NCBI GenBank assembly: GCA_052327205.1
Contig: CM126214.1
Location: forward strand, 185,814,001 to 185,878,000
Source: Somniosus microcephalus
Lineage: Eukaryota
DNA: 64,000 bases
Direction: 5' to 3'
The notes below the pieces were generated by a model. It had not been told where the DNA came from. It worked only from the letters and a program-made list of their open reading frames with translations, and searched no databases. Positions 1 through 62,600 of the stretch are shown here, piece by piece; positions within the stretch are counted from its first letter, which is position 1, and each line of letters begins with the position of its first letter. The position numbers were made by a program, and so were the translations under genes.

Positions 1-197
1 TCTTCCCAATATTTAATTGGTGAAAATTTTTGCTCATCCAGAACTGTATGTTGGATAAGCAGTCTGACAATTTAGAGACCGTGGAGACGTCGAGAGATGA
101 GGTAGTGAGGTAGAGCTGGGTGCCGTCAGTGTACATGTGGAAACTGATGCTGTGTTTTCAGATGATGTCGTCAAGGGGCAACATGTAGATGAGAAAT
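1..197 (-). mobile_element. L2-type LINE fragment (RT region)
   Basis: Minus strand reads ..HSISFHMYTDGTQLYLTTSS..LSDCLSNIQFWMSKNFHQLNIGK, a degenerate YADD RT segment of L2-clade LINEs. Confidence 0.7.
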
Positions 198-202
198 AAC
201 AA

Positions 203-385
203 ACACAGATTATCTGGTCATTATCACATTACTATTTGTGGGAGCTTGCTGTGTGCAAATTGGCTGCTGCGTTTCCTACATTACAACAGTGACTACACTT
301 CAAAAGTACTTCATTGGCTGTAAAGCGCTTTGGGATGTCCGGTAGTCATGAAAGGCGCTATATAAATGCAAGTTATTTCTGTCTT
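203..385 (+). mobile_element. 3' half of Deu-domain tRNA-SINE (SacSINE1/AmnSINE1-like)
   Basis: Matches the 3' half of fuller copies in the window (e.g. 33340-33795) and ends in the L2-like tail AGGCGCTATATAAATGCAAG. Confidence 0.75.
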
Positions 386-779
386 TCATAATTCCTGATC
401 AAAAAATCAGCCCGGTCTCACAAGTTGCCCATCTCCAGTCTTCCATTTTGAAAGCGAGTTTCTACCGTATCTTAAATATGTTTGGACACATAGATCTACC
501 AAGACAAGGAAATCTATATTTGTCACAAAGACATTTTCACTAACCTCCGAGCAGTGGTTTTAAAGAGAGGCTGAAGCAAAGGCCTGGTAACAGATTTTGC
601 AGGTCAGGCCTCTTCCTGTTCGGGGGAGCAGGAACTATTCCTTCACCCCTGTTGATGATTAGCTCAAGACCATCACTGGCAATGGTTTTAGTAGCTGATC
701 CCCTGTATGGCCATCCTATCAACTTTGGGAACACTCTATGGTGGAAATCAGGTAATGATAGAGGGATTGATATCCATAC

Positions 780-1298
780 AACAACAACTTGCTTTTGTAT
801 AGCACCTTTAACATAGTAAAATGTCCCACGGTGCTTCATAGGAGCGATTATCAAACAAAATTTAACACCAAGCCACATAAGGAGATATTAGGACAGGTGA
901 CCAAAAGCTTGGTCAAAGAGGTAGGTTTTAAGGAGAGTCTTAAAGGAGGAGAGAGAGGCGGCGAGGTTTAGGGAGGGAATTCCAGAGCTCGGGGCCCAGG
1001 CAGCTGAAGGCACAGCCACCGCTGATGGAGCGATGGAAATCGGGGATGCGCAAGAGGCCAGAATTAGAGGAGTGCAGAGATCTCAGGGGCGTGTAGGACT
1101 GGAGGAGGTTAAAGACATAGGGAGGGGCGAGGCCATGGAGGGATTGAAAAACAAGGATGAGAATTTTAAAGTCGAGGTGTTGCCGGACCGGGAGCCAATG
1201 TCGGTCAGTGAGCACAGGGGTGATGGGCGAACAATCTTGGTGCGAGGTAGGACACGGGCAGCAGAGTTTTAGATGAACATAAGTTTATGTAGGGTGGA
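780..1298 (-). mobile_element. L2 LINE 3' fragment
   Basis: ORF 940-1215 HWLPVRQHLDFKILILVFQSLHGLAPPY..GGCAFSCLGPELWNSLP is a typical L2 ORF2 C-terminus; (TTG)n tail at ~780. Confidence 0.85.
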
Positions 1299-1330
1299 AG
1301 ACAGATAGATAGATAAACAGACAGACAGAC

Positions 1331-1361
<31 letters not shown>

Positions 1362-1519
1362 TAGATAGACAGACAGACAGACAGGTAGATAATAGACAGA
1401 CAGACAAACAGATATAGATGGATAAAAAGATAGATACATGGATAGATTAATGAATAGATAGATAGACAGACAGACAGATAGATAGACAGACAGGTAGATG
1501 GATAAATAGATAAATAAAT
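1299..1519. repeat. (GATA/GACA)n tetranucleotide microsatellite running into an assembly gap
   Basis: Mixed AGAT/AGAC repeats seen directly. Confidence 0.95.
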
Positions 1520-1679
1520 NNNNNNNNNNNNNNNNNNNNNNNNNNNNNNNNNNNNNNNNNNNNNNNNNNNNNNNNNNNNNNNNNNNNNNNNNNNNNNNNN
1601 NNNNNNNNNNNNNNNNNNNNNNNNNNNNNNNNNNNNNNNNNNNNNNNNNNNNNNNNNNNNNNNNNNNNNNNNNNNNNNN
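1520..1679. other. Assembly gap (Ns)
   Basis: Run of N. Confidence 1.
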
Positions 1680-2793
1680 AGTTAGGGAAAACAAAGAAGT
1701 GAAAACATAGCAAGCGAGGGAGAATCTCCATTATTTAGCCTGGGATAGGCAACAATTAATTTTTTTTTAATGAAAATACATTAAATTTGACAGGTTCTTT
1801 AAAAAAAAGCACTGTCATAATATTTCATTGTTTTCATTTTATTTTTGCCACGCTGATGTTTTTCTAGAAATTTTTATTTGGAAATTAACCTGAGTTTCAC
1901 CCCAGCTGGGTTCCACCGCCTTATTCCGGCAGGGGAGTTGTAGATTCTGGAGTCTGGGCCAGGAGCGAGCTGCCCTGCCTGGCCAGGCCGTGTTTGTATT
2001 GTCTGAATTCCTCCAGCAGCACAGGGGAATACAGAGTTTCCCCTGCATTTAAACAAACATTACAATGCCTGCTGTGTATCTGCTCCCCCATCCCCGACCA
2101 ACTCAACTTGTCCTTCTGCCAGACACAGGCTCTTTTCTCCCTCTCTCTCTCCCTTTTCCCCTTCTGAGAGAGAGAAAAAAAATAGGTCATAAAAACTCGG
2201 AAGCTGAACGTCAGAATTCTTGCAGAGTGCGTGTCTAAAAGCCATTAATAATGCATCAAGAGCAGGTTAACTTAGGAGTCAGAGCTGCTGTCATTGTTAA
2301 AGGTGGAAGACCGATGGCATTAATGTTTGTCCGGTGGAAGCTTGCAGTTTAAGAAGCATGATATAATGCAGTTGATTGTTTCCTACAACCTGATTGACTC
2401 GAGGGTGTATGTATGTGTGTGTGTGTTATAATGAACTCCACATTTCACAGCTAGTTACAGAGGGCTAGATTTTCAGTTGATAGCGCCAGCAGTTAGCGCC
2501 TTAAGAGAAGTGATTTTCGGGCGCTATGCGTGTAGCGCCCGTGCGCAGCGCAGTTTGCGCCCCGCCCCAAATTAAGTTGCCCGTTAGCGCCGGCGCAAAG
2601 TTTAGCGCCCGCCCGGATGCGCGCGCAGAAAATGACGTCACATCCTCGTGCAACGCCCTTTGTGCGCCCCGATTCCAAACTTCAGTCGGACCGCCCCATT
2701 GTGCGGCTGGCGGCCGGAGCGTTTGGAAAAAGGAACGCAACACAACCAGCGCGGGCCCCGGGGGGCGCAAATTAAAGGGGACGTGCTCTCCAG

Positions 2794-2799
2794 TATAAA
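2794..2799 (+). promoter_or_regulatory. Putative TATA box of the transposase gene
   Basis: TATAAA ~165 bp upstream of ATG 2962; mirrored in copy 2. Confidence 0.45.
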
Positions 2800-2961
2800 G
2801 GCCAGCCTTTTTTCAGAAAACACTCTTGTGCAACGCATTTCTGGAGACACAACAAGGAGGATAGCTAACTGGTTTTAAGCAGCAAGAGCTCAGGTATTTT
2901 TGGACTCAGGCCAAAGCGCTGCAAGTGGCCTTTTGGAAATTTGAGTGTTTGCCAGGATTTG

Positions 2962-4113
2962 ATGGGGGTTGCATGGGGTGCCAACGCGAAGCTGCAGCTC
3001 CATGTCCGTAGGGCTCGCAGACGCATTGTGAGAGGGGCAGCCCTGGCTAGAGGCAGAGGGGGCTACAGGCGTCGGCCACGTAGGCCTTACCCAGTCAGGC
3101 TATACCGCCAGCAGCGCTCCTACCTAAACATGAGTGCCGCGCGATGTGTTAAAAGGCTCCGATTCCGAAAGGAGGTGATTGCAGAGATCTGCCACCTGCT
3201 TCGCCGAGATCTGCGGCCAAAGCTCAGGTGCAGGACGTCTCTGTCGGTGGAAGTGAAGGTGACGGTGGCATTGAACTTCTATGCCACCGGCTCCTTCCAA
3301 TACGCTGCTGGGGACATAGCAAACATCTCCCAGTACGGCGCGCATCGCTGCATCCGCCAGGTGACCGAAGCACTGTTCAGAAGGAGAAGCCAATTCATCT
3401 CCTTCCCCATGGCCCTGGAGAGCCAGCATCAGCGCGCATTGGGATTTTCCAGACTCGGGGAATTCCCCTTGGTGCAGGGCGCCATTAACTGTACGCATGT
3501 GGCTTTGTGGGCCCCTCTGGAGCATGGCGAGCAGTATCGCAACAGGAAGGGCTACCATTCTCTGAATGTGCAGCTGGTGTGTGACCACAAGCAGCGCATC
3601 ATGGCAGTCAATGCCAGCTTCCCAGGCAGCAGCCACGATGCCTTTATCCTGCGGCAGAGTACTGTGCATGACATGTTCCAGGCACAGCCTCCCCCAAGAG
3701 GATGGCTACTCGGGGACAAAGGCTATCCTTTGTGCACCTGGCTCATGACCCCGCTCCGCGCGCCCAGAACCGCTGCTGAAGAGACCTACAACGAGAGCCA
3801 TCAAACCACCCGCAACATCATCGAGCTAACTATTGGGGTCCTCAAGCAGCAGTTCCGCTGCCTTGATCGCTCCGGAGGAGCTCTCCAGTATTCGCCGGAC
3901 CGGGTCTCCCAATTTGTGGTGGTTTGCTGCATGCTACACAACCTGGCTATCCGCAGGACTCAGGCACTGCCACCTGACGTTGGACCAGCACCTCAGGAGG
4001 AGGAGCAGGAGGAGCATGAGGAGGAGGAGGAGGAGGAGCAGGAGTACGTTCCCAGGAGGGAGCGACCAGGGCCAAGGGCCGCACGACGCCACCTTATTAC
4101 ATGGTACTTCTAA
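2962..4113 (+). CDS. HARBI1-like Harbinger DDE transposase (383 aa), first catalytic Asp replaced by Asn
   Basis: Motifs GAI(N)CTHV, YRNRKGYHSLNVQLVCD, PGSSHD, LLGDKGY, R..IE.TIG.LK..FRCL, CCMLHN and an acidic tail; ATG 2962 is in frame. Confidence 0.92.
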   Translation: MGVAWGANAKLQLHVRRARRRIVRGAALARGRGGYRRRPRRPYPVRLYRQQRSYLNMSAARCVKRLRFRKEVIAEICHLLRRDLRPKLRCRTSLSVEVKVTVALNFYATGSFQYAAGDIANISQYGAHRCIRQVTEALFRRRSQFISFPMALESQHQRALGFSRLGEFPLVQGAINCTHVALWAPLEHGEQYRNRKGYHSLNVQLVCDHKQRIMAVNASFPGSSHDAFILRQSTVHDMFQAQPPPRGWLLGDKGYPLCTWLMTPLRAPRTAAEETYNESHQTTRNIIELTIGVLKQQFRCLDRSGGALQYSPDRVSQFVVVCCMLHNLAIRRTQALPPDVGPAPQEEEQEEHEEEEEEEQEYVPRRERPGPRAARRHLITWYF

Positions 4114-4476
4114 GCCCCCTGTCAGGGAATGGCCAGGGGCCATGAGGGAAGATGAATGCAGCCGCTCCGCAAGCCCTCAGCCGGCGAAGCCAACAAACAC
4201 TAAGAAGAACAACCATGGAGACTGCATGAATAAAGATAATTTTTTATTACACAAAAATGAAAAGCCCTTCCCACATGAATCCCCAAAAACAATAAACGGG
4301 CCCCACAAAAAGCCCAACAAACGACTCACTCCCACAAACTGGGGAGGAGTCACTCCACCTTTCTTCAAACCGGGCCTCAACGTCGGCCTAACGCAAAAAA
4401 TAAGCCCTCCAACAACACAACCATGGGCAAAATAAAGATGGCCACCGCCATATAAAAGGAAAGCTGGCCACACCCT

Positions 4477-6525
4477 CTACTGAGTGGCCCGTGAGGGCGA
4501 GACCTTGCCCAGCCTTTTGCCTCCCCTGCCCGGCCTGCTGCTCCTTCGCAAGCTCTGCCCAGTGGCTGCTGCGAGGCTGGGGGAAGGTGCCTGAGGCTCA
4601 GATGACCTTCCGCCAGATGCCGCTGGGGGGCGGCCTACACGGCGTTTGGGCCTCGAGGGGCCGTCTGCTGAGTGGCGCACCTGAGCCTGGCCACCATCAG
4701 CTGCAGCCGCTTGCCCTTGACGCCCCAGTGGGGGAATGGCGGCGACGGATGGCGCAATGTGGGCCAGCTGGCGTCTGGGATGCGCTGGCTGGTGCTGCGG
4801 CGCGGTGGCACTCGGCCGGGCCCGCACTGCAGGATCCGCAACAATCAGCCGAGGGGCGGCTTGCTGGGATGGTCCAGCGCGGCGGCTGCCCTGGCGATGC
4901 CTGCCTGAGACAGCGCGTGTGGCAGCAGTGAGTGCCCCTGTTGTCCTGGTGTGCGCGCGCATCACATCCGCCAGGGTCTTGACGGCATCAGTCAGCATGC
5001 GGCCACTCGCGGCAGTTGCTGCCCCGAACTCGCGCACACTGGTCGCCAGCGACTCGATGGCCTCAGGCATGCGCCCCACCACGCTCATGAGCTCCGTGTG
5101 GCGCCGGTCCGAATCCTCGGCCATCTTATCCAGCTTCCGCACCTCCTCCGAGGTGAAGGTGTCCGGACTGGAGTCGCGACTCTCCCGCTGGGGAGGAGGG
5201 GGCCGAACTAAGGGACCCTTGCCACGTTGGTGGCGGCGAGTGTGCCTATCAGCAGCACTCCCCTCTGATCCTTCCCCCCTTTGGGGGGAAGGCCGCGGGC
5301 CACGCGCACGGCTCCTGGGTGGCTGGACGCCACTGGTCCCAGAAGCTGCATTGCCCTGCGACAGTTCCTCCAGGCACTCGTCCAGTGAGGAGGTGTCAAG
5401 CATTTCCTCCTCTCCTGCGGGACGTGACTGTTCCCCCGATGGTCCGGCTTGCTCCTCCTCCTCCTCCTGCTCAGAGGTGCTGTCACTGGCAGCTTCAGGG
5501 TCCTGGTCGTCACCAGCTGAAAGCAGGAATGCACAAGAGTAGCTTCAGAGTGAGGAGACGGCGTCAGCGAGGGAGTTAGGACTGGTGGCATTCAGCGCAT
5601 TGGTGGGACAGTGGCAAAGGAGGTAGCTCGGATGGGCCAGTGCGACGCGAGAGGGCCAAAAGGCGAGGTCCTTACCATTGCCGGGCAGTGGAGGGTCGGC
5701 TACTCCGCACGCTGTGGGGACGATCACACGGGCTCCCATGAGCACACACACGCGCTCCTCCAGCCGAGTGAGCTTCTGCAGCTTGGCGCGGCCACCCCTG
5801 GCACGGGCCTGGCGATTAAAGGCTACTTTAGCCTGCAAGAGAAAGGACGGGCTGTAAGTGCGCAGTGTAGCCCTGATGTAGTGTGCACTGTCTCCCATGG
5901 TGGAATAGCTTGGCCAGAATGAAGCCCTGATGTAGTGTGCACTGCCTCCCATGGTGGAATAGCTTGGCCAGAGTGAAGCCCTGATGTAGTGTGCACTGCC
6001 TCCCATGGTGGAATAGCTTGGCCAGAGTGAAGCCCTGATGTAGTGTGCACAGCCTCCCATGGTGGAATAGCTTGGCCAGAGTGAAGCCCTGATGTAGTGT
6101 GCACAGCCTCCCATGGTGGAATAGCTTGGCCAAAGTGTAGAGTGCCGAATAGCCATTTGATGCTCATGACTGTCCCAATGCTGCTGGCTGAGGGCTGGCC
6201 AATAGGACTTTCAGCTCCCTTTGCCCATCATGTCAGGTGTACATGCAAGAATGAGGAGGAGACTGGAAAGGCTACTCACCTTGACAATCCTGGTCAGGTC
6301 ATTGTATTTTTTACGACATTGTTTGTGGGTCCTGGGGGCAACGCCGGTGAACGTCACCCTCTGGGCGATCTGCTTCCAGGCTTTGGTGTAGTCGTGGTGG
6401 GTTGGATTCCTCCCACTCTCTGGGAACAAGATCTTGCGCCTCACCTCCAGAGTTGTGACCATTATGTCCAGATCACCCTCTGAGAAGCGCAGGGCACGCT
6501 GACGGGCCTTCTCTGGCGTTGCCAT
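4477..6525 (-). CDS. Harbinger Myb/SANT-like DNA-binding protein, predicted 3 exons complement(join(4477..5516,5676..5832,6280..6525)), ~480 aa
   Basis: Exon 1 RFSEGDLDIMV..W..IA..V......RT..QCRKKYNDL is a Myb/SANT-like (NAIF1/MSANTD type) domain; GT-AG introns join exons in frame with ORF 4477-5403. Confidence 0.85.
5869..6136. repeat. 54-bp minisatellite, ~5 copies, in intron 1 of the Myb gene
   Basis: Unit CCCTGATGTAGTGTGCAC..CCCATGGTGGAATAGCTTGGCCAGAGTGAAG starts at 5871, 5925, 5979, 6033, 6087. Confidence 0.95.
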
Positions 6526-7759
6526 GACTCCCTGGGGCTGAGCAGCAGTGTTGAGGCCTCTTTGCAAGGCTGCAGTGTGCAGGGCATGGCAGCAGACCAA
6601 TTCGTCCCTTCCCCCTTTAAGAGCTGGTCGGCGCCACGGGGTCTGCTGTCAGTCCAAAAATGACCGCACCCGCGCTGCGCCCCGCCTGGGCGCTATCCCT
6701 CTGGACCGCCGGCTTAGCGCCTAAAGATAGTAGTGGAACGCCTCTTTTAGCGCTCCACCAACCTCTTAGGGCGAAGCCACTGAATTCCTGGCAACGGGGC
6801 GCTACTTTGGGGCGGGCGCTAACTTCGGGCGGGCGCTAAGGTTAGCGCCCCAAAACTGCCTATACTGAAAATCTAGCCCTTAGATTTTTTGTGTGCAATG
6901 CTGCGGTGTGGGAAATTTCAGAGAATTTCTTTAAATGTAACGGGTGCATTTAAAAAAAATAGTATTGGCATTCACAAGTGATTCGTGAGTGTTGGCGATC
7001 CCTCAGTATCATGGGTTAAGTACAATGGGTAAACTCCTTCTACAACGCCCCAACAAACTAACTTGAAGCCTGGAGCTTCCGCCGCATTTGCGTCCAGAGA
7101 CGGGCCAAAATCTGGGCGCAAACCAGTTCCGCGCCTTAAAAGGTCGCGGAATTTCGGGCGTAAGTGAATTCCGCGCACAATACGCCCAGGTCTCCTTTTA
7201 CAGCCGTGCGGTAAACCCTCCGCCCGAACCGAATCTCAGCCACCCGCAGTTTGTTTCCATGTGCAGACCAGACCACAACTGAGGGGTTTTACCCGTCAGA
7301 TCAAAGACAGAACAGGCTGGGGCTCTTCTCTCTAGAAAAGAGAAGACAGAGGGGTGACCTGATAGAGTTCTTTAAGATTGTGAAAGGGGTAGAGGTAGAG
7401 AAGATGGGCTAGATTTTCAGTATAGGCAGTTTTGGGGCGCTAACCTTAGCGCCCGCCCGAAGTTAGCGCCCGCCCCAAAGTAGCGCCCCGTTGCCGGGAA
7501 TTCAGTGGCTTCGCCCTAAGAGGTTGGTGGAGCGCTAAAAGAGGCGTTCCACTACTATCTTTAGGCGCTAAGCCGGCGGTCCAGAGGGATAGCGCCCAGG
7601 CGGGGCGCAGCGCGGGTGCGGTCATTTTTGGACTGACAGCAGACCCCGTGGCGCCGACCAGCTCTTAAAGGGGGAAGGGACGAATTGGTCTGCTGCCACG
7701 CCCTGCACACTGCAGCCTTGCAAAGAGGCCTCAACACTGCTGCTCAGCCCCAGGGAGTC

Positions 7760-9808
7760 ATGGCAACGCCAGAGAAGGCCCGTCAGCGTGCCCTGCGCTT
7801 CTCAGAGGGTGATCTGGACATAATGGTCACAGCTCTGGAGGTGAGGCGCAAGATCTTGTTCCCAGAGAGTGGGAGGAATCCAACCCACCACGACTACACC
7901 AAAGCCTGGAAGCAGATCGCCCAGAGGGTGACGTTCACCGGCGATGCCCCCAGGACCCACAAACAATGTCGTAAAAAATACAACGACCTGACCAGGATTG
8001 TCAGGGTGAGTACCCTTTCCAGTCTCCTCCTCATTCTTGCATGTACACCTGACATGATGGGCAAAGGGAGCTGAAAGTCCAATTGGCCAGCCCTCAGCCA
8101 GCAGCATTGGGACAGTCATGAGCATCAATTGGCCATTCGGCACTCTACACTCTGGCCAAGCTATTCCACCATGGGAGGCTGTGCACACTACATCAGGGAT
8201 TCACTCTGGCCAAGCTATTCCACCATGGGAGGCTGTGCACACTACATCAGGGCTTCACTCTGTCCAAGCTATTCCACCATGGGAGGCAGTGCACACTACA
8301 TCAGGGCTTCACTCTGGCCAAGCTATTCCACCATGGGAGGCAGTGCACACTACATCAGGGCTTCACTCTGGCCAAGCTATTCCACCATGGGAGGCAGTGC
8401 ACACTACATCAGGGCTACACTGCGCACTTACAGCCCGTCCTTTCTCTTGCAGGCTAAAGTAGCCTTTAATCGCCAGGCCCGTGCCAGGGGTGGCCGCGCC
8501 AAGCTGCAGAAGCTCACTCGGCTGGAGGAGCGCGCGTGTGTGCTCATGGGAGCCCGTGTGATCGTCCCCACAGCGTGCGGAGTATCCGACCCTCCACTGC
8601 CCGGCAATGGTAAGGACCTCGCCTTTTGGCCCTCTCGCGTCGCACTGGCCCATCCGAGCTACCTCCTTTGCCACTGTCCCACCAATGCGCTGAATGCCAC
8701 CAGTCCTAACTCCCTCGCTGATGCCGTCTCCTCACTCTGAAGCTACTCTTGTGCATTCCTGCTTTCAGCTGGTGACGACCAGGACCCTGAAGCTGCCAGT
8801 GACAGCACCTCCGAGCAGGAGGAGGAGGAGGAGCAAGCCGGACCATCGGGGGAACAGTCACGTCCCGCAGGAGAGGAGGAAATGCTTGACACCTCCTCAC
8901 TGGATGAGTGCCTGGAGGAACTGTCGCAGGGCAATGCAGCTTCTGGGACCAGTGGCGTCCAGCCACCCAGGAGCCGTGCGCGTGGCCCGCGGCCTTCCCC
9001 CCAAAGGGGGGAAGGATCAGAGGGGAGTGCTGCTGATAGGCACACTCGCCGCCACCAACGTGGCAAGGGTCCCCTAGTTCGGCCCCCTCCTCCCCAGCGG
9101 GAGAGTCGCGACTCCAGTCCGGACACCTTCACCTCGGAGGAGGTGCGGAAGCTGGATAAGATGGCCGAGGATTCGGACCGGTGCCACACGGAGCTCATGA
9201 GCGTGGTGGGGCGCATGCCTGAGGCCATCGAGTCGCTGGCGACCAGTGTGCGCGAGTTCGGGGCAGCAACTGCCGCGAGTGGCGGCATGCTGACTGATGC
9301 CGTCAAGACCCTGGCGGATGTGATGCGGGCGCACACCAGGACAACAGGGGCACTCACTGCTGCCACACGCGCTGTCTCAGGCAGGCATCGCCAGGGCAGC
9401 CGCCGCGCTGGACCATCCCAGCAAGCCGCCCCTCGGCTGATTGTTGCGGATCCTGCAGTGCGGGCCCGGACGAGTGCCACCGCGCCACAGCACCAGCCAG
9501 CGCATCCCAGACGCCAGCTGGCCCACATTGCGCCATCCGTCGCCGCCATTCCCCCACTGGGGCGTCAAGGGCAAGCGGCTGCAGCTGATGGTGGCCAGGC
9601 TCAGGTGCGCCACTCAGCAGACGGCCCCTCGAGGCCCAAACGCCGTGTAGGCCGCCCCCCAGCGGCATCTGGCGGAAGGGCATCTGAGCCTCAGGCGCCT
9701 TCCCCCAGCCTCGCAGCAGCCACTGGGCAGAGCTTGCGAAGGTGCAGCAGGCCGGGCAGGGGAGGCAAAAGGCTGGGCAAGGTCTCGCCCTCGCGGGCCA
9801 CTCAGTAG
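7760..9808 (+). CDS. Harbinger Myb/SANT-like protein, predicted join(7760..8005,8453..8609,8769..9808), 480 aa
   Basis: Donor AGG|GTGAGT at 8005, acceptor TTTCTCTTGCAG| at 8452, donor ATG|GTAAGG at 8609, acceptor CTTTCAG| at 8768; the splice keeps frame into ORF 8882-9808. Confidence 0.87.
8149..8416. repeat. 54-bp minisatellite, ~5 copies (mirror of 5869-6136)
   Basis: Tandem repeats seen directly. Confidence 0.95.
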
Positions 9809-10171
9809 AGGGTGTGGCCAGCTTTCCTTTTATATGGTGGTGGCCATCTTTATTTTGCCCATGGTTGTGTTGTTGGAGGGCTTATTTTTTGCGTTAGGCC
9901 GACATTGAGGCCCGGTTTGAAGAAATGTGGAGTGACTCCTCCCCAGTTTGTGGGAGTGAGTCGTTTGTTGGGCTTTTTGTGGGGCCCGTTTATTGTTTTT
10001 GGGGATTCATGTGGGAAGGGCTTTTCATTTTTGTGTAATAAATAATTATCTTTATTCATGCAGTCTCCATGGTTGTTCTTCTTAGTGTTTGTTGGCTTCG
10101 CCGGCTGAGGGCTTGCGGAGCGGCTGCATTCATCTTCCCTCATGGCCCCTGGCCATTCCCTGACAGGGGGC

Positions 10172-11323
10172 TTAGAAGTACCGTGTAATAAGGTGGCGTC
10201 GTGCGGCCCTTGGCCCTGGTCGCTCCCTCCTGGGAACGTACTCCTGCTCCTCCTCCTCCTCCTCCTCATGCTCCTCCTGCTCCTCCTCCTGAGGTACTGG
10301 TCCAACGTCAGGTGGCAGTGCCTGAGTCCTGCGGATAGCCAGGTTGTGTAGCATGCAGCAAACCACCACAAATTGGGAGACCCGGTCCGGCGAATACTGG
10401 AGAGCTCCTCCGGAGTGATCAAGGCAGCGGAGCCGCTGCTTGAGGACCCCAATAGTTTGCTCGATGATGTTGCGGATGGTTTGATGGCTCTCGTTGTAGG
10501 CCTCTTCAGCAGCGGTCCTGGGCGCGCGGAGCGGGGTCATGAGCCAGGTGCACAAAGGATAGCCTTTGTCCCCGAGTAGCCATCCTCTTGGGGGAGGCTG
10601 TGCCTGGAACATGTCATGCACAGTACTCTGCCGCAGGATAAAGGCATCGTGGATGCTGCCTGGGAAGCTGGCATTGACTGCCATGATGCGCTGCTTGTGG
10701 TCACACACCAGCTGCACATTCAGAGAATGGTAGCCCTTCCTGTTGCGATACTGCTCGCCATGCTCCAGAGGGGCCCGCAAAGCCACATGCGTACAGTCAA
10801 TGGCGCCCTGCACCAAGGGGAATTCCCCGAGTCTGGAAAATCCCAATGCGCGCTGATGCTGGCTCTCCAGGGCCATGGGGAAGGAGATGAATTGGCTTCT
10901 CCTTCTGAACAGTGCTTCGGTCACCTGGCGGGTGCAGCGATGCGCGCCGTACTGGGAGATGTTTGCTATGTCCCCAGCAGCATATTGGAAGGAGCCGGTG
11001 GCATAGAAGTTAAATGCCACCGTCACCTTCACTTCCACCGACAGAGACATCCTGCACCTGAGCTTTGGCCGCAGATCTCGGCGAAGCAGGTGGCAGATCT
11101 CTGCAATCACCTCCTTTCGGAATCGGAGCCTTTTAACACATCGCGCGGCACTCATGTTTAGGTAGGAGCGCTGCTGGCGGTATAGCCTGACTGGGTAAGG
11201 CCTACGTGGCCGACGCCTGTAGCCCCCTCTGCCTCTAGCCAGGGCTGCCCCTCTCACAATGCGTCTGCGAGCCCTACGGACATGGAGCTGCAGCTCCGCG
11301 TTGGCACCCCGTGCAACCCCCAT
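10172..11323 (-). CDS. HARBI1-like Harbinger DDE transposase (383 aa), D-D-E motifs retained
   Basis: GAIDCTHV, LLGDKGY and RNIIEQTIG motifs present; no stops or frameshifts. Confidence 0.93.
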   Translation of the reverse strand: MGVARGANAELQLHVRRARRRIVRGAALARGRGGYRRRPRRPYPVRLYRQQRSYLNMSAARCVKRLRFRKEVIAEICHLLRRDLRPKLRCRMSLSVEVKVTVAFNFYATGSFQYAAGDIANISQYGAHRCTRQVTEALFRRRSQFISFPMALESQHQRALGFSRLGEFPLVQGAIDCTHVALRAPLEHGEQYRNRKGYHSLNVQLVCDHKQRIMAVNASFPGSIHDAFILRQSTVHDMFQAQPPPRGWLLGDKGYPLCTWLMTPLRAPRTAAEEAYNESHQTIRNIIEQTIGVLKQRLRCLDHSGGALQYSPDRVSQFVVVCCMLHNLAIRRTQALPPDVGPVPQEEEQEEHEEEEEEEQEYVPRRERPGPRAARRHLITRYF

Positions 11324-12085
11324 CAAATCCTGGCAAACACTCAAATTTCCAAAAGGCCACTTGCAGCGCTCTGGCCTGAGTCCAAAAATACCTGAGCTCT
11401 TGCTGCTTGAAACCAGTTAGCTATCCTCCTTGTTGTGTCTCCAGAAATGCGTTGCACAAGAGTGTTTTCTGAAAAAAGGCTGGCCTTTATACTGGAGAGC
11501 ACGTCCCCTTTAATTTGCGCCCCCCGGAGCCCGCGCTGGTTGTGTTGCGTTCCTTTTTCCAAACGCTCCGGCCGCCAGCCGCACAATGGGGCGGTCCGAC
11601 TGAAGTTTGGAATCGGGGCGGCCAAAGGGCGTTGCACGAGGATGTGACGTCATTTTCTGCGCGCGCATCCGGGCGGGCGCTAAACTTTGCGCCGGCGCTA
11701 ACGGGCAACTTAATTTGGGGCGGGGCGCAAACTGCGCTGCGCACGGGCGCTACACGCATAGCGCCCGAAAATCACTTCTCTTAAGGCGCTAACTGCTGGC
11801 GCTAGCAACTGAAAATCTAGCCCGATGTTTCCACTGTGGGGGAGACCAGACCCAGGGACCATAAATACAAGACAGTCACTAATAAACCCAGGAGAAACTT
11901 CTTCACCCAGAGAGGGGTGAGAGTGTGGAACTGGCCACCACAGGGAGTGGGTGAGGCGAATAGTATAGGTGCATTTAAGGGGAAGCTGGATAAGCGCATG
12001 AGGGAGAAGGGAATAGAGGGTTATTTTGATAGGGTGAGATGAAGAGGGGTGGGAGCAGGCTCATGTGGAGCAGAAACACCGGCAA

Positions 12086-26268: not shown

Positions 26269-27460
26269 ATGATGGCAGCTTCACGCCCCAGGGAGAGAGC
26301 CCGCAGATTCTGCGACCATGCATTGGAGGCATTGGTGTCTGCAGTGGAAAGACGGTGGGCGGTGCTCTACCCAGCAAGTGGCAGGAGGCCCTCGCCGAAA
26401 GTCTTCTGCACTATGTGGAGGGAGGTAGCCCAGCATGTCTCAGGCAGCACTGTGGTACCCAGGACCCCCACACATTGCAGGAAGAAATTTAACGACCTCA
26501 CGCGGGTGGTCAGGGTGAGTCAATGCTTCAACAAATGTTACATACCACCATCTGAACCACAGTCTGTACACACTGCCCAAAGGACCACACCCCCAGCACT
26601 CACCCACCAACAATCTCTAACTACCAACTCTCACACCCACATCTCACACCTTGCCCACAATGACAGCTATTCAACTGTGGCAGGCACATCACCCAAACAC
26701 ATTGCTCCACACTCACTCACACACTTTCCTTTCTCTTGCAGGCCAAGGTGGCTCACAACAGGAGGGAGCAGGAGCGCACAGGCGGAGGGACAAGCCGACA
26801 CCCAACCACTGTCTGAGCTGGAGACTCGCGTGCTGGAGATTATTGGGCACCAGGTGGTGGGCGCCGTGGCCACCGGCGACTTTGACCCCCTTGGGGACAA
26901 CAATGGTATGTTCATCCCTATTCCTTATTCTCACATCCCACTTCACCCTCACCCCACAAGCCTTTCGCACTTTCCAGCTAATCATGCTGTATGCAACATT
27001 TCTCCGTTCCAGCCCCCCTCCCCTCACCTTAACCCAACTCTTGTGCCTTTATGCTTTCAGACAATGAGCAAGCAGCTGAGCAGCCTGTCCCCGAGGGCAC
27101 CGTAGAGAGCGAGGTCGGAGAAGAGCAGGAGGAAGAAGACACTGTGTCACTGCATCTCTCACCTGCAGGCACCAGCTCAGATACTGGCACTACGTGTTCT
27201 TTAGAGGCTAGTATAGTAGCGGGATCCACACAGGGTGAGGCACCAGGGATGAGCGGGCTGCAGCGAGGCCAGGGGGATAGGGTAGCTCGGGAGCCAGCTC
27301 CCCGGAGGGCGAGTTCGCGCGTGAGTTCTGCGGCACAGGACTCAGATGAGGATCTCGATGGGGAGGCCTTTAGAAGAAAGGGTGATGGGCATGCACACGG
27401 AGATCATAGGTGTAATGGCAAGGGTGCTCGAGAGCCTCTCGGCAATGGTAAGGAGCGTGG
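26269..27460 (+). pseudogene. Myb/SANT-like gene remnant, exons 26269-26514, 26742-26905, 27061-~27460
   Basis: RFCDHALEALV..W.EVA..VS......RT..HCRKKFNDL; same splice positions as the young element; frameshift in exon 2; 3' truncated. Confidence 0.8.
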
Positions 27461-28290
27461 CTCTCATTATATGAGTGCTGGGCAGGAGTGTTGGGGTTGC
27501 GGAGGGGAGTCATGAGCCAGGTGGAGAGCGGAAAGCCCTTGTCTCCGACCAGCCAGTTGCGAGCTTGATGTGGCAGCTGGAAGAGTGCTGGCACACCAGT
27601 CTGGCACAAAATGAAGGCATCGTGGCTGCTGCCAGGAAAGCGGGCAATCACATTGAGGATTCGCTGTCTGTGGTCGCACACCAACTGTGCATTAAATGAG
27701 TGGTAGCCTTTGCGCTTACGGAAGATCTCAGAATTGTTATGCCATGCTCACAAAGCCACGTGGGTGCAGTAAATGGCGTCCTGCACCATGGGGAAGCCTG
27801 CTATCCTGGCAAAGCCACATGCACGGGAAGGAAATGTAATCCCTTCTCCTACTGTAGTGAGCCTCTGCGACCTCCCGGATGCAGTGATGGATGGCGAACT
27901 GCAAGATGTTAGCTATGTCTCCTGTTGCAGACTGGAAGGAACTGCTGGCGAAGAAACTGCGGGCGATGCTGACCTTGACTGCCCCTGAGAGCGCCGTGGT
28001 CACTCTGATCTGAGGCTCGAGGACTGGTTGCAGGAGGTGGCAGAGTTCTGTGACCACCTCCTTACTGAAGTGGAGCCTTCTAATACACTGCTCCTCACTT
28101 AATTGGAGGTGGGAGAAGTGCTCTTGGAATACACTCGGAGGGTAAGGTCTCCTGTTGAGAGCCCTCATGGGCCTTCTCCTCCCTCTGGCCACATGTTCCA
28201 ATCTTGCTCGCTGCCTTCGCTCCCTCCCCATAGATCTTGGAGGGCGAGGGTGAGGTCGACTGCCATTACAGCCCCCATTAATGTTATGAG
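27454..28290 (-). pseudogene. HARBI1-like transposase remnant, 3' truncated and frameshifted
   Basis: VCDHRQRIL..FPGSSHDAFIL..LVGDKGFPL..YNESHA in ORF 27370-27684; N-terminal part in ORF 27737-28354. Confidence 0.85.
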
Positions 28291-47568: not shown

Positions 47569-50500
47569 TACATAGAAACATAGAAGATAGGAGCAGGAGT
47601 AGGCCATTCGGCCCCTCGAGCCTGCTCCGCCATTTAATGAGATCATGGCTGATCATCCAAATTCAGTACCCCGTCCCTGCTTTCTCCCCATACCCCTTGA
47701 TCCCTTTAGCCTTAAGAAATATATCTAACTCCTTCTTGAATATATTTAATGAATTGGCCTCTACTGCCTTCTGTGGTAGAGAATCCCACAGGTTCACCAC
47801 TCTCTGGGTGAAGAAATTCCTCCTCATTTCTGTCCTAAATGGCTTACCCCTTATCCTTAGACTGTGACCCCTGGTTCTGGACTCCCCGACCATCGGGAAC
47901 ATCCTTCCTGCATCTAGTCTGTCCAGTCCTGTCAGAATTTTATAAGTTTCAATGAGATCCCCTCTCATTCTTCTAAACTCCAGCGAGTACAAGCCCCAAC
48001 CCCCAGGAGACCCAATCTCTCCTCATACATCATTCCTGCCATCCCAGGTATCAGCCTGGTGAATCTTCGCTGAACTCCTTCCATGGCAAAAACATCCTTC
48101 CTCAGATAAGGTGACCAAAACTGCACACAATACTCAAGATGTGGTCTCACCAAGGCCCTGTACAACTGCAGCAAGACATCCTTGTTCCTGTACTCAAACC
48201 CTCTCGTTACAAAGGCCAACATACCATTTGCCTTCTTAACCGCCTGCTGCACCTGCATGCTTACCTTCAGCAACTGGTGCACAAGGACGCCCAGGTCTCG
48301 TTGCACTTCCCCTTCTCCCAATCTATTGCCATCCAGATAATAATCTGCCTTCCTGTTTTGCCACCAAAGTCTATAACCTCACATTTATCCACGTTATATT
48401 GCATCTGCCATGCTTCTGCCCAATCACCCAATCTGTCCAAATCATCCTGGAGTTTCTCGGCATCCTCCTCACAGCACACACGCCCACCCAGCTTTGTGTC
48501 ATCTGCAAATTTGGAGATATTACATCTAGTTCCCTTGTCTAGATCATTAATATATATTGTGAATAGCTGGGGTCCAAGGATTGATCCCTGCGGTACCCCA
48601 CTAGTCACTGCCTGCCACTCGGAAAAAGAGCCGCTTATTCCAACTCTTTGCTTTCTGTCTGCCAACCAGTTCTCTATCCAAGTCAATACCTTGCCCCCAA
48701 TCCCATGTGCCTTAACTTTACACGCTAATCTCTTATGCGGGACCTTATCAAAAGCCTTCTGAAAGTCCAAATACACCACATCCACTGGTTCTCCCTTATC
48801 TATTTTACCAGTTACATCCTCAAAAAATTCCAGTAGATTAGTACTGGACCTAATTCTAGGGAATGTAGCCGGGCAAGTGGCGGAAGTGTCAGTAGGAGAG
48901 CATTTTGGCGACAGTGACCATAATTTGGTGAGATTTAAGGTGGTCATGGAAAAAGACAAAGACAGCCCGGAAATAAGGGTTCTAAATTGGGGGAAGGCCG
49001 ATTTTAATATGATAAGGCAGGATCTGGCCAAAGTGGACTGGGAGCAGCTACTTGTAGGAAAATCCACATCAAAGCAGTGGGAGACTTTCAGAAGGGAAAT
49101 AGAGAGAGTACAATGCCAACATGTTCCCGTAAAGGTCAAGGGTGGTACCAACAAGCAAAGGGAACCTTGGATGGCAAGGGATATACAAAAATGCATTAGG
49201 AAAAAAAGGGGGGCTTTTGGCAGTTACAAAAGACTAAAGATGGAGGAGCCCTAGAGGAGTATAAAATGTGCAGGGGCATACTTAAAAAAGAAATTAGGAG
49301 AGTGAGGAGGGGCCATGAAATAATACTGGCGAGCAAAATAAAGGAAAATCCTAAGATGTTTTATAAGTATATTAAGGGCAAGAGGATAACCAGGGAAAGG
49401 GTAGGGCCCATTAGGGACCAAAGTGGCAATCTGTGTGTAGAGCCAGATGATGTAGGCGGGGTTTTAAATGATTTTTTTGCATCTGTGTTCACTATGGAGG
49501 AAGACGATGTAGACATAGAAATCGGGCAAGGGGACTGTGATATACTTGAACATATTAGCATTGAGAGGGAGGAGGTACTAGCGGTTTTAGCAGGCCAAAA
49601 AGTGGATAAATCCCCAGGCCCAGACGAGATGTATCCCAGGCTGCTGTGTGAGGCAAAGGAGGAGGTTGCAGGGGCTCTGACACAAATTTTCAGAACCTCT
49701 CTGGCCACAGGGGATGTACCAGAGGACTGGAGAACAGCTAAGGTAGTACCATTATTCAAGAAGGGTAGCGGGGATAAACCAGGGAATTACAGGCCAGTGA
49801 GCCTAACATCTGTGGTAGGGAAATTATTGGAAAAAATTCTGAGGGACAAAATTAGTCTCCACTTGGAGAGGCAAGGATTAATCAGGGATAGTCAGCATGG
49901 CTTTGTCAAGGGTAAATCATGTCTGACCAATCTGATTGAATTTTTCGAGGGGGTGACAAGGTGTGTGGATGAGGGAAATGCTGTGGATGTGGTATACATG
50001 GACTTCAGTAAGGCTTTTGACAAAGTCCCGCATAGGAGACTGGTCAAGAAGGTAAGAGCCCATGGGATCCAGGGTGCCTTGGCACGTTGGATCCTAAACT
50101 GGCTGAGTGGCAGGAGGCAGAGGGTGATGGTCGAAGGTTGCTTTTGTGACTGGAAGCCTGTGTCCAGTGGGGTACCTCAGGGATCGGTGCTGGGTCCCTT
50201 GCTGTTTGTGATCTACATAAATGATTTGGATGAGAATGTAAAAGGTATGATCAGTAAGTTCGCAGATGACACGAAAATTGGTGGGGTAGTAAATTGCGAG
50301 GAGGAAAGCCTCAGGCTACAGGACGATATAAACGGGTTGGTCAGATGGGCGGAAAAGTGGCAAATGGAATTTAACCCTGAAAAGTGCGAGGTGATGCATT
50401 TTGGACAGACAAATAAGGCAAGGGAATACACAATGAGTGGTAGGGCCCTAGGAAGCACAGAGGGTCAGAGGGACCTTGGTGTACATGTACATAGATCCCT

Positions 50501-51226
50501 GAAGGCAGCGGATCAGGTAGATAAGGTGGTTAAAAAGGCATATGGGATACTTGCCTTCATTAGCCGAGGCATAGAATATAAGAGCAGGGAGGTTATGATG
50601 GAGCTGTACAAAACGCTGGTAAGGCCACAGCTGGAGTACTGTGTGCAGTTCTGGTCGCCTCACTATAGGAAGGATGTGATTGCTTTGGAGAGGGTGCAGA
50701 GAAGATTTACCACGATGTTACCTGGGATGGAGCGCCTCAGCTATGAAGAAAGACTAAACAGGCTGGGGTTGTTTTCCTTGGAGCAAAGAAGGCTGAGGGG
50801 GGACCTGATTGAGGTGTACAAAATGATGAGGGGCATAGATAGGGTAGATAAAGAGGAACTTTTCCCCTTAGTAGGGGGGTCAATAACAAGGGGGCATAGA
50901 TTCAAGGTAAGGGGCAGGAGGTTTAGAGGGGATTTGAGGAGGAACCTTTTCACCCAGAGGGTGGTTGGAGTCTGGAACTCACTGCCTGAAAGGGTGGTAG
51001 AGGCAGGAACCCTCACAATATTCAAGAAGCATTTGGATGAGCACTTGAAATGCCATTGCATACAAGGCTATGGACCAAATGCTGGAAAATGGGATTAGAT
51101 TGGACAGGGCTTGATGGACGGCGCAGACACGATGGGCCGAAGGGCCTCTTTCTGTGCTGTATAACTCTATGACTCTATGATTACCTTTTGTAAATCCATA
51201 TTGACTTTGTCCGATCCTGTCCTGTT
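47569..51226 (-). mobile_element. 5'-truncated CR1 (ATGTTTCT tail), split by another CR1 (pieces 47569-48842 and 51181-51226)
   Basis: RT motifs YLDFQKAFD, GVPQGS, KFADD in ORF 48267-49196; the host sequence resumes after 51180. Confidence 0.85.
48843..51180 (+). mobile_element. Young 5'-truncated CR1 (ATGACTCT tail)
   Basis: ORF2 open from 49266 to 51098 (610 aa) with complete RT; stop at 49252-49254; most of the endonuclease is missing. Confidence 0.95.
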
Positions 51227-59647: not shown

Positions 59648-62600
59648 TCATCATAGAATCATAGAAAGTTACAGCGCGGAAGGAGGCTATTTCGGCCCAT
59701 CGTGTCCGCGCCGGCCAACAAAGAGCTATCCAGCCTAATCCCACTCCCCAGCTCTCGGTCCGTAGCCCTGCAGGTTAGAGCATCTGACGTGCACATCCAA
59801 GTACTTTTTAAATGTGGTTAGGGTTCCTGCCTCTACCACCCTTTCAGGCAGTGAGTTCCAGACCCCCACAACCTTCTGGGTGAAGAAATTTCCCCTCAAA
59901 TCCCCTCTAAACCTTCCCCCAATTACTTTAAATCTGTGCCCCCGGTTTTTGACCCCTCTGCTAAGGGAAATAGGTCCTTTCTATCCACTTTATCTATGCC
60001 CCTCATAATTTTATACACCTCAATAAGGTCTCCCCTCAGCCTCCTCTGTTCCAAGGAAAACAGACCCAGCCTATCCAGTCTTTCCTCATAGCTAAGATTC
60101 TCTACTCCCGGCAACATCCTTGTAAATCTCCTCTGTACCCTCTCTAGTGCAATCACATCTTTCCTGTAATGTGGTGACCAGAACTGCACTCAGTACTCTA
60201 GCTGAGGCCTAACTAGTGTTTTATACAGTTGAAGCATAACCCCCCTGCTCTTGTATTCTAAGCCACGGCTAATAAAGGCAAGCATTCCGTATGCCTTCTT
60301 AACCACCTTATCTACCTGGCCTGCTACCTTCAGGGATCTGTGGACATGCACGCCAAGGTCCCTTTGTTCCTCTACACTACTCAGTGTCCTACCATTTAAT
60401 ATGTATTCCCTTTCCTTGTTAGCCCTCCCCAAATGCATTACCTCACACTTCTCTGGATTGAATTCCCATTTGCCACTGTTCTGCCCACCTGATGAATTTA
60501 TTGATATCTTCCTGCAGTCTACAGCTTCCTTCTTCAGTATCAACCACACAGCCGATTTTAGTATCGTCTGCAAACTTCTTAATCATAGCCCCTATATTCA
60601 AGTCTAGATCATTGATATATACCACAAAAAGCAAGGGACCTAGTACTGAGCCCTGCGGAACCCCACTGGAAACAGCCTTCCAGTCACAAAAACACCCATC
60701 AACCATTACCCTCTGCTTCCTCTCTCCGAGCCAGTTTTGAATCCAACTGGACACTTTGCCCTGGATCCCATGGGCTTTTAACTTCGTGACCAGTCTGCCA
60801 TGTGGAACCTTATCAAAAGCCTTGCTAAAGTCCATATAAACTACATCAAACGTATTACCCTCATCTACCCTCCTTGTTACCTCCTCAAAAAATTCAATCA
60901 AGTTTGTCAGACACGACCTTCCCTTAACAAATCCGTGCTGACTATCCTTGATTAATCTATGTCTTTCTAAATGAAGATTTATCCTGTCCTTCAGAATTCT
61001 TTCCAATAATTTTCCCACCACCGAGGTTAGGCTGACTGGCCTGTAATTACTCGGTCTATCCTTTTCTCCCTTTTTAAACAAGGGTACCACATTAGCAGTC
61101 CTCCGGCACCACACCTGAAGCCAGAGAGGATTGAAAAATGATGGTCAGGGCCTCTGCTATTTCCTCTTTTGCTTCGCTTAACAGCCTGGGATACATTTCA
61201 TCCGGGCCTGGGGATTTATCCACTTTTAAAACTGCTAAACCCCTTAATACTTCCTCTCTCACTATGTTTATTTCATCTAATATTTCACACTCCTCCGCCC
61301 CCCCCGCCCCCCCCCCCCCCGATAGCAATGTCTGCTTCGAACCTCTCCTTTGTGAAAACAGACGCAAAGTATTCATTAAGAACCCTACCGACATCTCCTG
61401 CCTCCACACACAGATTACCCTCATGGTCTCTAATAGGCCCTACCCTTTCTTTCGTTATCCTCTTACTCTTAATATATTTATAAAACATCTTTGGGTTTTC
61501 CTTGATTCTACTTGCCAAGAATTTTTCATGCTCTCTCTTTCCTTTCCTAATATCCTTTTTAATTGCTTCCCCTGCACTTTCTGTACTCCTCTAAAGATTC
61601 TGGAGTGTTTAGCCCTCGGTATCTGTCAGACGCCTCCCTTTTTTTTCTTTATCCTACCCTGTATGTCCCTAGACATCCAGGGGGCTCTAGATTTGTTAGT
61701 CCCACCTTTTTTCTGCCTCCCACTGCTCTGACACTGATTTACCTTCAAGTAGCTGTTTCCAGTCCACTTTGGCTAAATCCACTCTAAGCTTAGCAAAATT
61801 TGCTTTTCCCCAATTTAGAATTTTTATTCCTGGTCTATCCTTGTCCTTTTCCATAACTACCTTAAATCTAACAGAATTATGGTCACTAGCACCAAAATGC
61901 TCCCCCACTGAGACGCCTTCTACCTGCCCAGCTTCATTCCCTAAAACTAAGTCCAGAACCGCCCCCTCCCTTGTTGGGCTTGCTACGTACTGGCTAAAAA
62001 AGTTCTCCTGGATGCATTTTAGGAATTTTGCACCCTCTATACCCTTCACACTAATTTTATCCCAGTTAATATTGGGGTAGTTGAAATCCCCTATTATTAC
62101 TGCCCTATAGTTTTTGCACTTCTCAGAAATTTGTCTACATATTTGTTTTTCTATCTCCCTCTCATTGTTTGGGGGTCTGTAGTACACTCCCAGCAATGTG
62201 ATCACCCCTTTTTTGTTTTTCAATTTGACCCATATGTCCTCGTTTGATGATCCCTCCAACATATCATCCCTCCTCACAGCTGTAATCGTTTCTTTAATCA
62301 ATACCACGAACCCCCCTCCCTTTTTACCTCCCTCTCTATCCCGTTTGAAAATCCGGTAACCAGGAATGTTGAGCTGCCATACCTGCCCCTCTTTCAGCCA
62401 TGTCTCTGTAATAGCTATAATATCATAGTCCCAAGTATCTACCTGTGCCCTCAGCTCATCTGCCTTGTTCGCTATACTCCTTGCATTGAAGTATAGACCA
62501 TTTAGTACAGGCAAACCTCCTTGTTGACTACTATCTAGCCCTTGATTCCTCTGTCCTTCCAACTTACTTTCTACATTTTTGTTTTCCAATTCCAGTTTTT

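Follow-up and report, generated by a model that had tools for sequence, protein, structure and literature searches.

A 9.4-kb inverted pair of PIF/Harbinger transposons in Somniosus microcephalus, probably formed by separate insertions from two source lineages

How do two long and nearly identical DNA transposons come to lie tail-to-tail a few hundred bases apart, and does the resulting quasi-palindrome have a role in the life of its family? The question is raised by a locus of Somniosus microcephalus, contained in a 64,000-nucleotide stretch of contig CM126214.1 (assembly GCA_052327205.1, positions 185,814,001 to 185,878,000, forward strand), hereafter the window. Two gap-free, full-length PIF/Harbinger elements, designated arm 1 and arm 2, stand here around a 526-bp spacer and together form a quasi-palindrome of 9.4 kb. 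The best explanation, and in our judgement a highly probable one, is an ordinary paired insertion from separate lineages that left a passive inverted repeat without selected function.

Self-BLAST of the window returned a single ungapped inverted match (2462-6879 against 11823-7406; 4418 bp, 58 mismatches, 98.69%), in which position x pairs with 14285-x across both arms and the mismatches are evenly distributed along them. Terminal inverted repeats (TIRs) of 16 bp are present at all four element ends. Arm 2 is flanked on both sides by GAT, its target site duplication (TSD), and the host repeat that it interrupts, a putative CR1, is collinear across the insertion, with one sibling copy of that repeat aligning on both sides at an offset of -3. 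Arm 1 has no matching TSD (AGA on the left, TTA on the right), and the outer flanks of the pair, AGA and GAT, provide no TSD around the whole unit. A first-pass annotation of this DNA had described two near-identical inverted copies of 4418 bp around a 526-bp spacer, with Myb genes pointing outward, transposases pointing inward and copy 2 as a separate insertion; the self-match, the domain matches in the arms, and the TSD and collinear host repeat of arm 2, respectively, bear out each of these points.

The relationship of the two arms to the remainder of the family carries most of the argument. Thirty full-length copies were gathered with arm 1 as the query (30 of the 34 scored), and 40 further copies were taken in order along contig C1 for lineage analysis. 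Among the 30 copies, the distance between the arms (58) is that of an average family pair (mean 57.3 over 435 pairs; 54th percentile), and for 15 of 28 other copies the distance to each arm is smaller than the distance between the arms. Two sub-lineages, A (18 copies) and C (23 copies), are separated at 16 sites, where arm 1 carries the A allele 14 times and arm 2 the C allele 12 times; the two arms differ in strict accordance with lineage at 11 of these sites, bear swapped alleles at one and have the same allele at four. A check for reciprocal chimeras of the Galileo type found, in these one swapped and four shared sites of 16, no single-crossover pattern. These alleles mark the arms as two insertions from different sources and not sisters. 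Fold-back, assembly duplication and a hop of copy 1 would each give near-identical arms of one lineage. Fold-back duplication, against which the earlier description had already argued, was rejected on the differences at lineage-diagnostic sites, the average-pair distance and the independent TSD of copy 2. The local hop of copy 1 that had been suggested in its place fails on the same distance, on the 15 of 28 copies nearer to each arm and on the different sub-lineages of the arms.

The family to which both arms belong is young and abundant, with approximately 900 close copies. The original view of the arms as two young Harbinger copies is supported. An exact 3'-end marker has 2,009 matches genome-wide, a transposase marker 8,145 (including subfamilies approximately 80-99% like arm 1) and a closest-family marker 926; both ends are present in 39 of 40 sampled marker copies. 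A target profile drawn from 25 sites (both strands) is palindromic and 15 bp long, A[AG]A[CG][AT]C-NNN-G[AT][CG]T[CT]T. Gaps between neighbouring copies fall below 50 kb in 6 of 99 cases, against 1.09 expected (p ~0.001). Under uniform placement, 0.02 tail-to-tail pairs within 526 bp would be expected from the ~926 closest copies and 1.35 from the 8,145 marker copies; the former figure therefore requires a clustering mechanism. For the youngest family, the window pair is more than uniform placement would yield, yet it illustrates a tendency of the family as a whole.

The genome contains at least four further inverted pairs of full-length copies, with spacers of 11-1220 bp; those with spacers of more than 30 bp come from the first 100 places listed only, and their number is a lower bound. 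TIR pairs abutting within 30 bp number 35 (21 direct, 14 inverted), against 0.3-0.5 expected if 8,000-10,000 elements are assumed, an expectation that leaves out short derivatives and is compared with a count in which two of the 35 loci look like duplicates of two others. A depletion of inverted relative to direct abutting pairs was not apparent (14 versus 21, p 0.31). Five of the 35 join two full-length copies, three in inverted and two in direct orientation. Near-perfect palindromes are found tail-to-tail at C3:340.88 Mb (L048:623-9473; 11-bp spacer, 33/4360 differences) and C17:47.02 Mb (L077:618-9696; 19-bp spacer, 123/4363 differences), and head-to-head at C3:216.42 Mb (L066:505-9480; 25-bp spacer, 70/4468 differences). 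The arms of the first of these are mutually nearest in the sample (33 versus 55 differences). A GACTC/GAGTC repeat similar to the target profile is present, by hand count, in 23 of the 35 abutting-pair spacers. The 8-bp repeat TATGACTC, presumably a LINE tail, is an insertion hotspot, with 23 of the 35 abutting pairs lying within it and one triple in L063.

In the explanation that we prefer, two separate cut-and-paste insertions from one young, abundant PIF/Harbinger family, drawn from two source lineages, would have come to rest in opposite orientation 526 bp apart. Its observed parts are the separate lineages, the TSD of copy 2, the palindromic target preference, the clustering and the repeated formation of pairs. 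The adjacent arms would thereafter act as a passive inverted repeat, occasionally pairing and exchanging short tracts by gene conversion; they could also bring about an inversion of the spacer, of which another pair is an example, and the locus would be without selected function. On the features tested, the window pair is in none of the killer, composite or inversion classes considered below.

Several points weigh against this explanation. The set of 30 copies with which the arms were compared was itself retrieved using arm 1. Only 0.02 such pairs are predicted for the youngest family under uniform placement, and at the window pair itself the target score of the arm 2 site is modest (4.9; range 0.7-12.8). 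The missing TSD of arm 1 does not follow from this explanation, although family copies without an exact TSD are frequent (14 of the 39 sampled). The case for exchange between the arms is modest: sharing of a non-CpG doubleton is seen in 14 of the 456 unrelated A x C pairs too, and the arms are no more mosaic than other copies.

On balance, the alleles rather favour one or more short tracts of conversion from arm to arm. The T transversion at 5247/9038 occurs in 3 of 926 copies, namely both arms and one copy of the lineage of arm 1. At element position 4326 (window 7498), arm 2 carries a non-C allele present in none of the 23 C copies, and at element position 3239 (5700/8585) the lineage alleles are swapped. 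Wholesale homogenization of the arms was considered and rejected: outside the tandem repeat their distance (51) is little reduced, standing at the 12th percentile of A x C pairs (59.6 +/- 7.3).

Exact TSDs flank 26 of 30 copies of the first set and 25 of 39 of the second; of the 14 without, 7 are off by two or more bases. A one-base mismatch in the TSD was observed in 7 of 39 copies (L093-L132), against approximately 1.4 expected from age, and target-like half-sites often stand on both sides. Gap repair, imprecise insertion or an exchange between copies may lie behind the imperfect TSDs. In arm 1, the right half-site is target-like (6.6) and the left is poor (-1.9), a difference suggesting that the outer side of the element has undergone deletion or exchange. 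These unmatched flanks are not reciprocal to those of arm 2. Four candidate reconstructions of the empty site scored -0.4 to 4.9, none being decisive; no paralogue helps to rebuild it because the left flank is single-copy, and the empty allele is absent among the loose contig ends listed.

Arm 1 is also the starting point for the rival explanation that survives best, which we nevertheless consider unlikely: a local hop or hybrid-element insertion would have made identical twins, one of which, probably arm 1, was later overwritten by excision and gap repair from a copy of another lineage. The unmatched flanks of arm 1, the mosaic character of family copies and the existence of near-twin neighbours elsewhere (6/4742 differences at C1:87.53 Mb, 33/4360 at L048) are all consistent with such a history. 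It requires, however, a second and whole-length replacement, arm 1 being A-type from element position 19 to 3820, and unmatched flanks occur in dispersed copies too (14/39).

The first-pass annotation had further proposed that the locus could silence its family. In this scheme, which resembles maize Mu killer and which we regard as improbable, germline read-through from an outside promoter would yield a 4.4-kb hairpin whose small RNAs repress the family. The arms are 98.7% complementary, and inverted transposon repeats drive double-stranded RNA (dsRNA) and silencing in maize according to 10.1101/2020.01.07.897926. Furthermore, Xenopus Harbinger repeats are reported in PMC10636886 to be A-to-I edited as dsRNA, an already known case of Harbinger-derived dsRNA in a vertebrate. 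The layout of the genes speaks against the scheme: the promoters on the spacer side, those of the Myb genes, face outward, and 2.6 kb before the spacer each arm has opposed poly(A)-type signals of putative function, so that a hairpin would need read-through or an outside promoter. The tighter pairs described above are, in addition, equally good candidates.

RNA depth over 6911-7297 of the spacer is 0 in both of two runs from organism A (tissue, RNA selection and genotype unspecified), while the family end beside the spacer is covered approximately 70-260x in the same runs, both mates summed. A Pfam scan of 150 of 356 candidate frames, covering the window and 30 kb upstream and insensitive to short exons, found no host exon; the only match above the cut-off is the Myb domain of another element, upstream of the window (L045:8551-8808, plus strand). 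The private allele of arm 1 at 6341 appears in 0/92 and 0/129 RNA reads and is likewise missing from the X1 and X3 contigs, which renders an allele-specific expression test at this site void. In the same upstream region, 11-20 kb from the window, two open frames of 443 and 628 aa (L045:208-1536 and 1651-3534, minus strand) have no Pfam match.

The maize killers are described in 10.1101/2020.01.07.897926 as partial elements duplicated in inverted orientation, through which transcription runs from a promoter of the element or one beside it. Mu killer as well as the Ac killers (PMC3440606 and 10.1101/2020.01.07.897926) resemble the window pair in being long inverted transposon repeats able in principle to fold back. 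Instead of a partial-element inverted duplication from one source, however, the window holds two whole elements of different lineages, with putative internal terminators and with no spanning transcript seen in the two RNA runs. Gene layout, Pfam scan and RNA thus lend the proposal no support, and a silencer role is unlikely. It is a long shot that germline read-through in the shark makes either the window pair or a tighter sibling with an 11-25-bp spacer a natural 'killer' locus of a vertebrate; if it were true, small RNAs from a 4.4-kb hairpin would shut down the very Harbinger burst from which the locus arose, and the target preference, by repeatedly placing copies next to one another in the 8-bp repeat, would build the family's own silencers.

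A role as an inversion hotspot had likewise been put forward, and here the evidence comes from another pair. At G000:C1:87531964-87542667 (L031+L032), two full-length copies stand tail-to-tail around a 1220-bp spacer and differ at 6/4742 sites, the next nearest copy differing at 34. Their flanks are AAA/ATA and TTT/TAT; when the spacer is reversed, two TSDs reappear together with two plausible target sites. Judged by these flanks, the locus is a transposon-made inversion or a hybrid-element insertion, and from the swapped TSDs it would follow that pairs of this Harbinger family invert their spacers. In PMC2775673, exchanged TSDs are diagnostic of transposon-made inversion by ectopic recombination of Galileo, and near-identical arms are linked to hybrid-element insertion, not to recombination between chimeric copies. 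The C1:87.53 Mb pair is akin to the Galileo inversions in its opposite-orientation copies and exchanged TSDs, and its near-identical arms are unlike chimeric recombined copies. The window pair, in contrast, has no exchanged TSDs; because the TSD of arm 2 and the host repeat are intact, there has been no net inversion of the spacer in the window haplotype.

Two remaining rivals can be dealt with briefly. That the pair is, or once was, a composite transposon mobilized through the two outer ends, as had been suggested, is exceedingly improbable: four intact TIRs and the open DDE transposase and Myb frame of arm 2 would favour it, but the outer flanks differ (AGA and GAT), both outer ends are 5' ends, one host repeat extends past arm 2 on both sides, into the spacer and into the right flank, and the unique part of the spacer is found at a single place in the genome. 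An assembly artefact in which one copy was assembled twice draws on the inner junction of arm 2, bridged by none of the contigs listed, and is very unlikely: the 58 differences between the arms are evenly spread and lineage-diagnostic, and arm 2 has an independent TSD. Also against it, in DNA contigs of organisms A and B an element 3' end is joined to the spacer; these contigs reach 21-23 letters into the arm, fewer than the 31-letter rule applied to such joins, and suggest that arm 1 is common to both organisms.

On every feature tested, the element belongs to PIF/Harbinger: a DDE transposase, a Myb/SANT-like second gene, TIRs, a 3-bp TSD (arm 2 and family) and an extended target preference. 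The transposase domain (DDE_Tnp_4, PF13359) was matched in both arms, facing inward (E 1.9e-37 and 1e-38), and Myb_DNA-bind_5 (PF13873, E 1.3e-11) in exon 1 of arm 2, the arm tested, with the Myb genes facing outward. The three-exon, 480-aa Myb gene model with GT-AG introns is a prediction from sequence, and the arm 1 protein differs from that of arm 2 at 10/480 residues. At position 176 of the transposase, a conserved acidic residue that by the family motif would be the first aspartate of the DDE triad, 29 of 30 copies have D. Arm 1 has N there, and its transposase is probably inactive. The arm 2 transposase carries 10 changes relative to the family majority, including S224I and F298L; an open frame with D176, D252 and E288 is present in 20 of 30 copies. 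Private codon changes in the transposase across the 30 copies are synonymous in 33 of 116 cases, no different from the neutral 24% (p 0.28), and by this measure both element proteins appear to be under neutral drift. Element length ranges from 4259 to 4741 bp among copies, probably through the copy number of a 54-bp tandem repeat. Feature coordinates are collected in Table 1.

Table 1. Coordinates, in the window, of the inverted pair, its genes and its flanks
Feature	Position	Strand	Basis
Arm 1, full-length PIF/Harbinger, sub-lineage A, no matching TSD	2462..6879	+	self-BLAST, flanks, diagnostic sites
Arm 2, full-length PIF/Harbinger, sub-lineage C, TSD GAT/GAT	7406..11823	-	self-BLAST, flanks, diagnostic sites
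16-bp TIR, arm 1 outer (5') end	2462..2477	+	
16-bp TIR, arm 1 inner (3') end	6864..6879	-	
16-bp TIR, arm 2 inner (3') end	7406..7421	+	
16-bp TIR, arm 2 outer (5') end	11808..11823	-	
Arm 1 left flank AGA, mismatching TTA at 6880-6882; half-site score -1.9 versus 6.6 for right half	2459..2461	+	
Spacer, 526 bp	6880..7405		self-BLAST
Spacer part, single-copy	6880..7067		one place in genome
End fragment of old dispersed repeat, 70-85% to at least 39 other places	7068..7245	+	
Host repeat left of arm 2, ending in TSD GAT 7403-7405	7281..7405	+	
Host repeat resuming past arm 2, opening with TSD GAT 11824-11826	11824..12084	+	
Arm 1 transposase, 383 aa, open frame, D176N	2962..4113	+	profile match, alignment
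Arm 2 transposase, 383 aa, open frame, D176/D252/E288 retained	10172..11323	-	profile match, alignment
Arm 1 Myb/SANT-like gene, predicted exons 6280-6525, 5676-5832, 4477-5516; 480 aa	4477..6525	-	predicted from sequence
Arm 2 Myb/SANT-like gene, predicted exons 7760-8005, 8453-8609, 8769-9808	7760..9808	+	predicted from sequence, profile match
54-bp tandem repeat, 5.1 copies, Myb intron 1	5864..6137 (mirror 8148-8421)		
Opposed poly(A)-type hexamers between convergent genes (AATAAA: + at 4229, - at 4243)	4229..4248 (arm 2 mirror 10037-10056)		function inferred
Rare T allele common to arm 2 (9038); any conversion tract within 5212-5379	5247..5247		

The family has in common with Ping/mPing and Harbinger3_DR the DDE transposase, separate Myb-like gene, short TIRs and 3-bp TSD, as well as the extended target preference and short non-autonomous derivatives. 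A target preference extending over 15 bp in vertebrate Harbinger is a known superfamily trait (PMC2836001). The family differs in its loose TSD centre and in the absent or imperfect TSD of 14/39 copies. Harbinger-Snek of sea kraits, which according to 10.1101/2021.06.13.448261 makes up 8-12% of the genome and is attributed to horizontal transfer, is alike in its young vertebrate expansion, intact two-gene copies and short derivatives. Whereas horizontal transfer is claimed for Snek, the best relatives of the window family come from other sharks and rays, the database proteins most similar to the transposase being entries named 'putative nuclease HARBI1' from these groups, with identity of no more than 65%. 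PMC9179366 reports that no Harbinger was found in elephant shark, and a text search of 10.1101/2025.06.08.657570 found no mention of Harbinger. In the open-licence literature, with subscription papers and repeat databases outside the search, there was no description of this family or of such pairs in sharks.

Other arrangements of the family were observed along the way. Non-autonomous derivatives of 660-810 bp are numerous (L047-L080) and retain approximately 340 bp at the 5' end and 210 bp at the 3' end. G000:C1:16604000-16633700 (L041-L043) is a cluster of eight or more copies, full-length as well as short, that lie in both orientations and are interleaved with a minisatellite, and head-to-tail tandem dimers of full-length elements from several subfamilies lie at G000:C1:7.87 Mb, 38.68 Mb and 41.07 Mb (L033-L038). 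Copies with common flanks (L002/L005, L049/L050, L075/L076) are segmental or assembly haplotype duplicates. Within the window, 27457-28114 (minus strand) is an older Harbinger transposase remnant with 48-59% protein identity, and the sequence directly left of arm 1 (1880-2461) is single-copy, with no function found for it. An older inverted repeat pair (48841-51181 and 59650-61959; 74% over 2.4 kb) probably consists of dispersed retroelement copies.

Taken singly, the locus matters little; its value is that of a member in a natural series of full-length inverted pairs, with spacers of 11, 19, 25, 526 and 1220 bp, arm differences of 6 to 123 sites and one inverted spacer. More can be learned from the genome-wide series, chiefly from the pairs at C1:87.53 Mb and C3:340.88 Mb, than from the window locus. 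This series makes testable the survival, conversion and inversion of long inverted repeats in a vertebrate genome, and whether such repeats feed small-RNA silencing.

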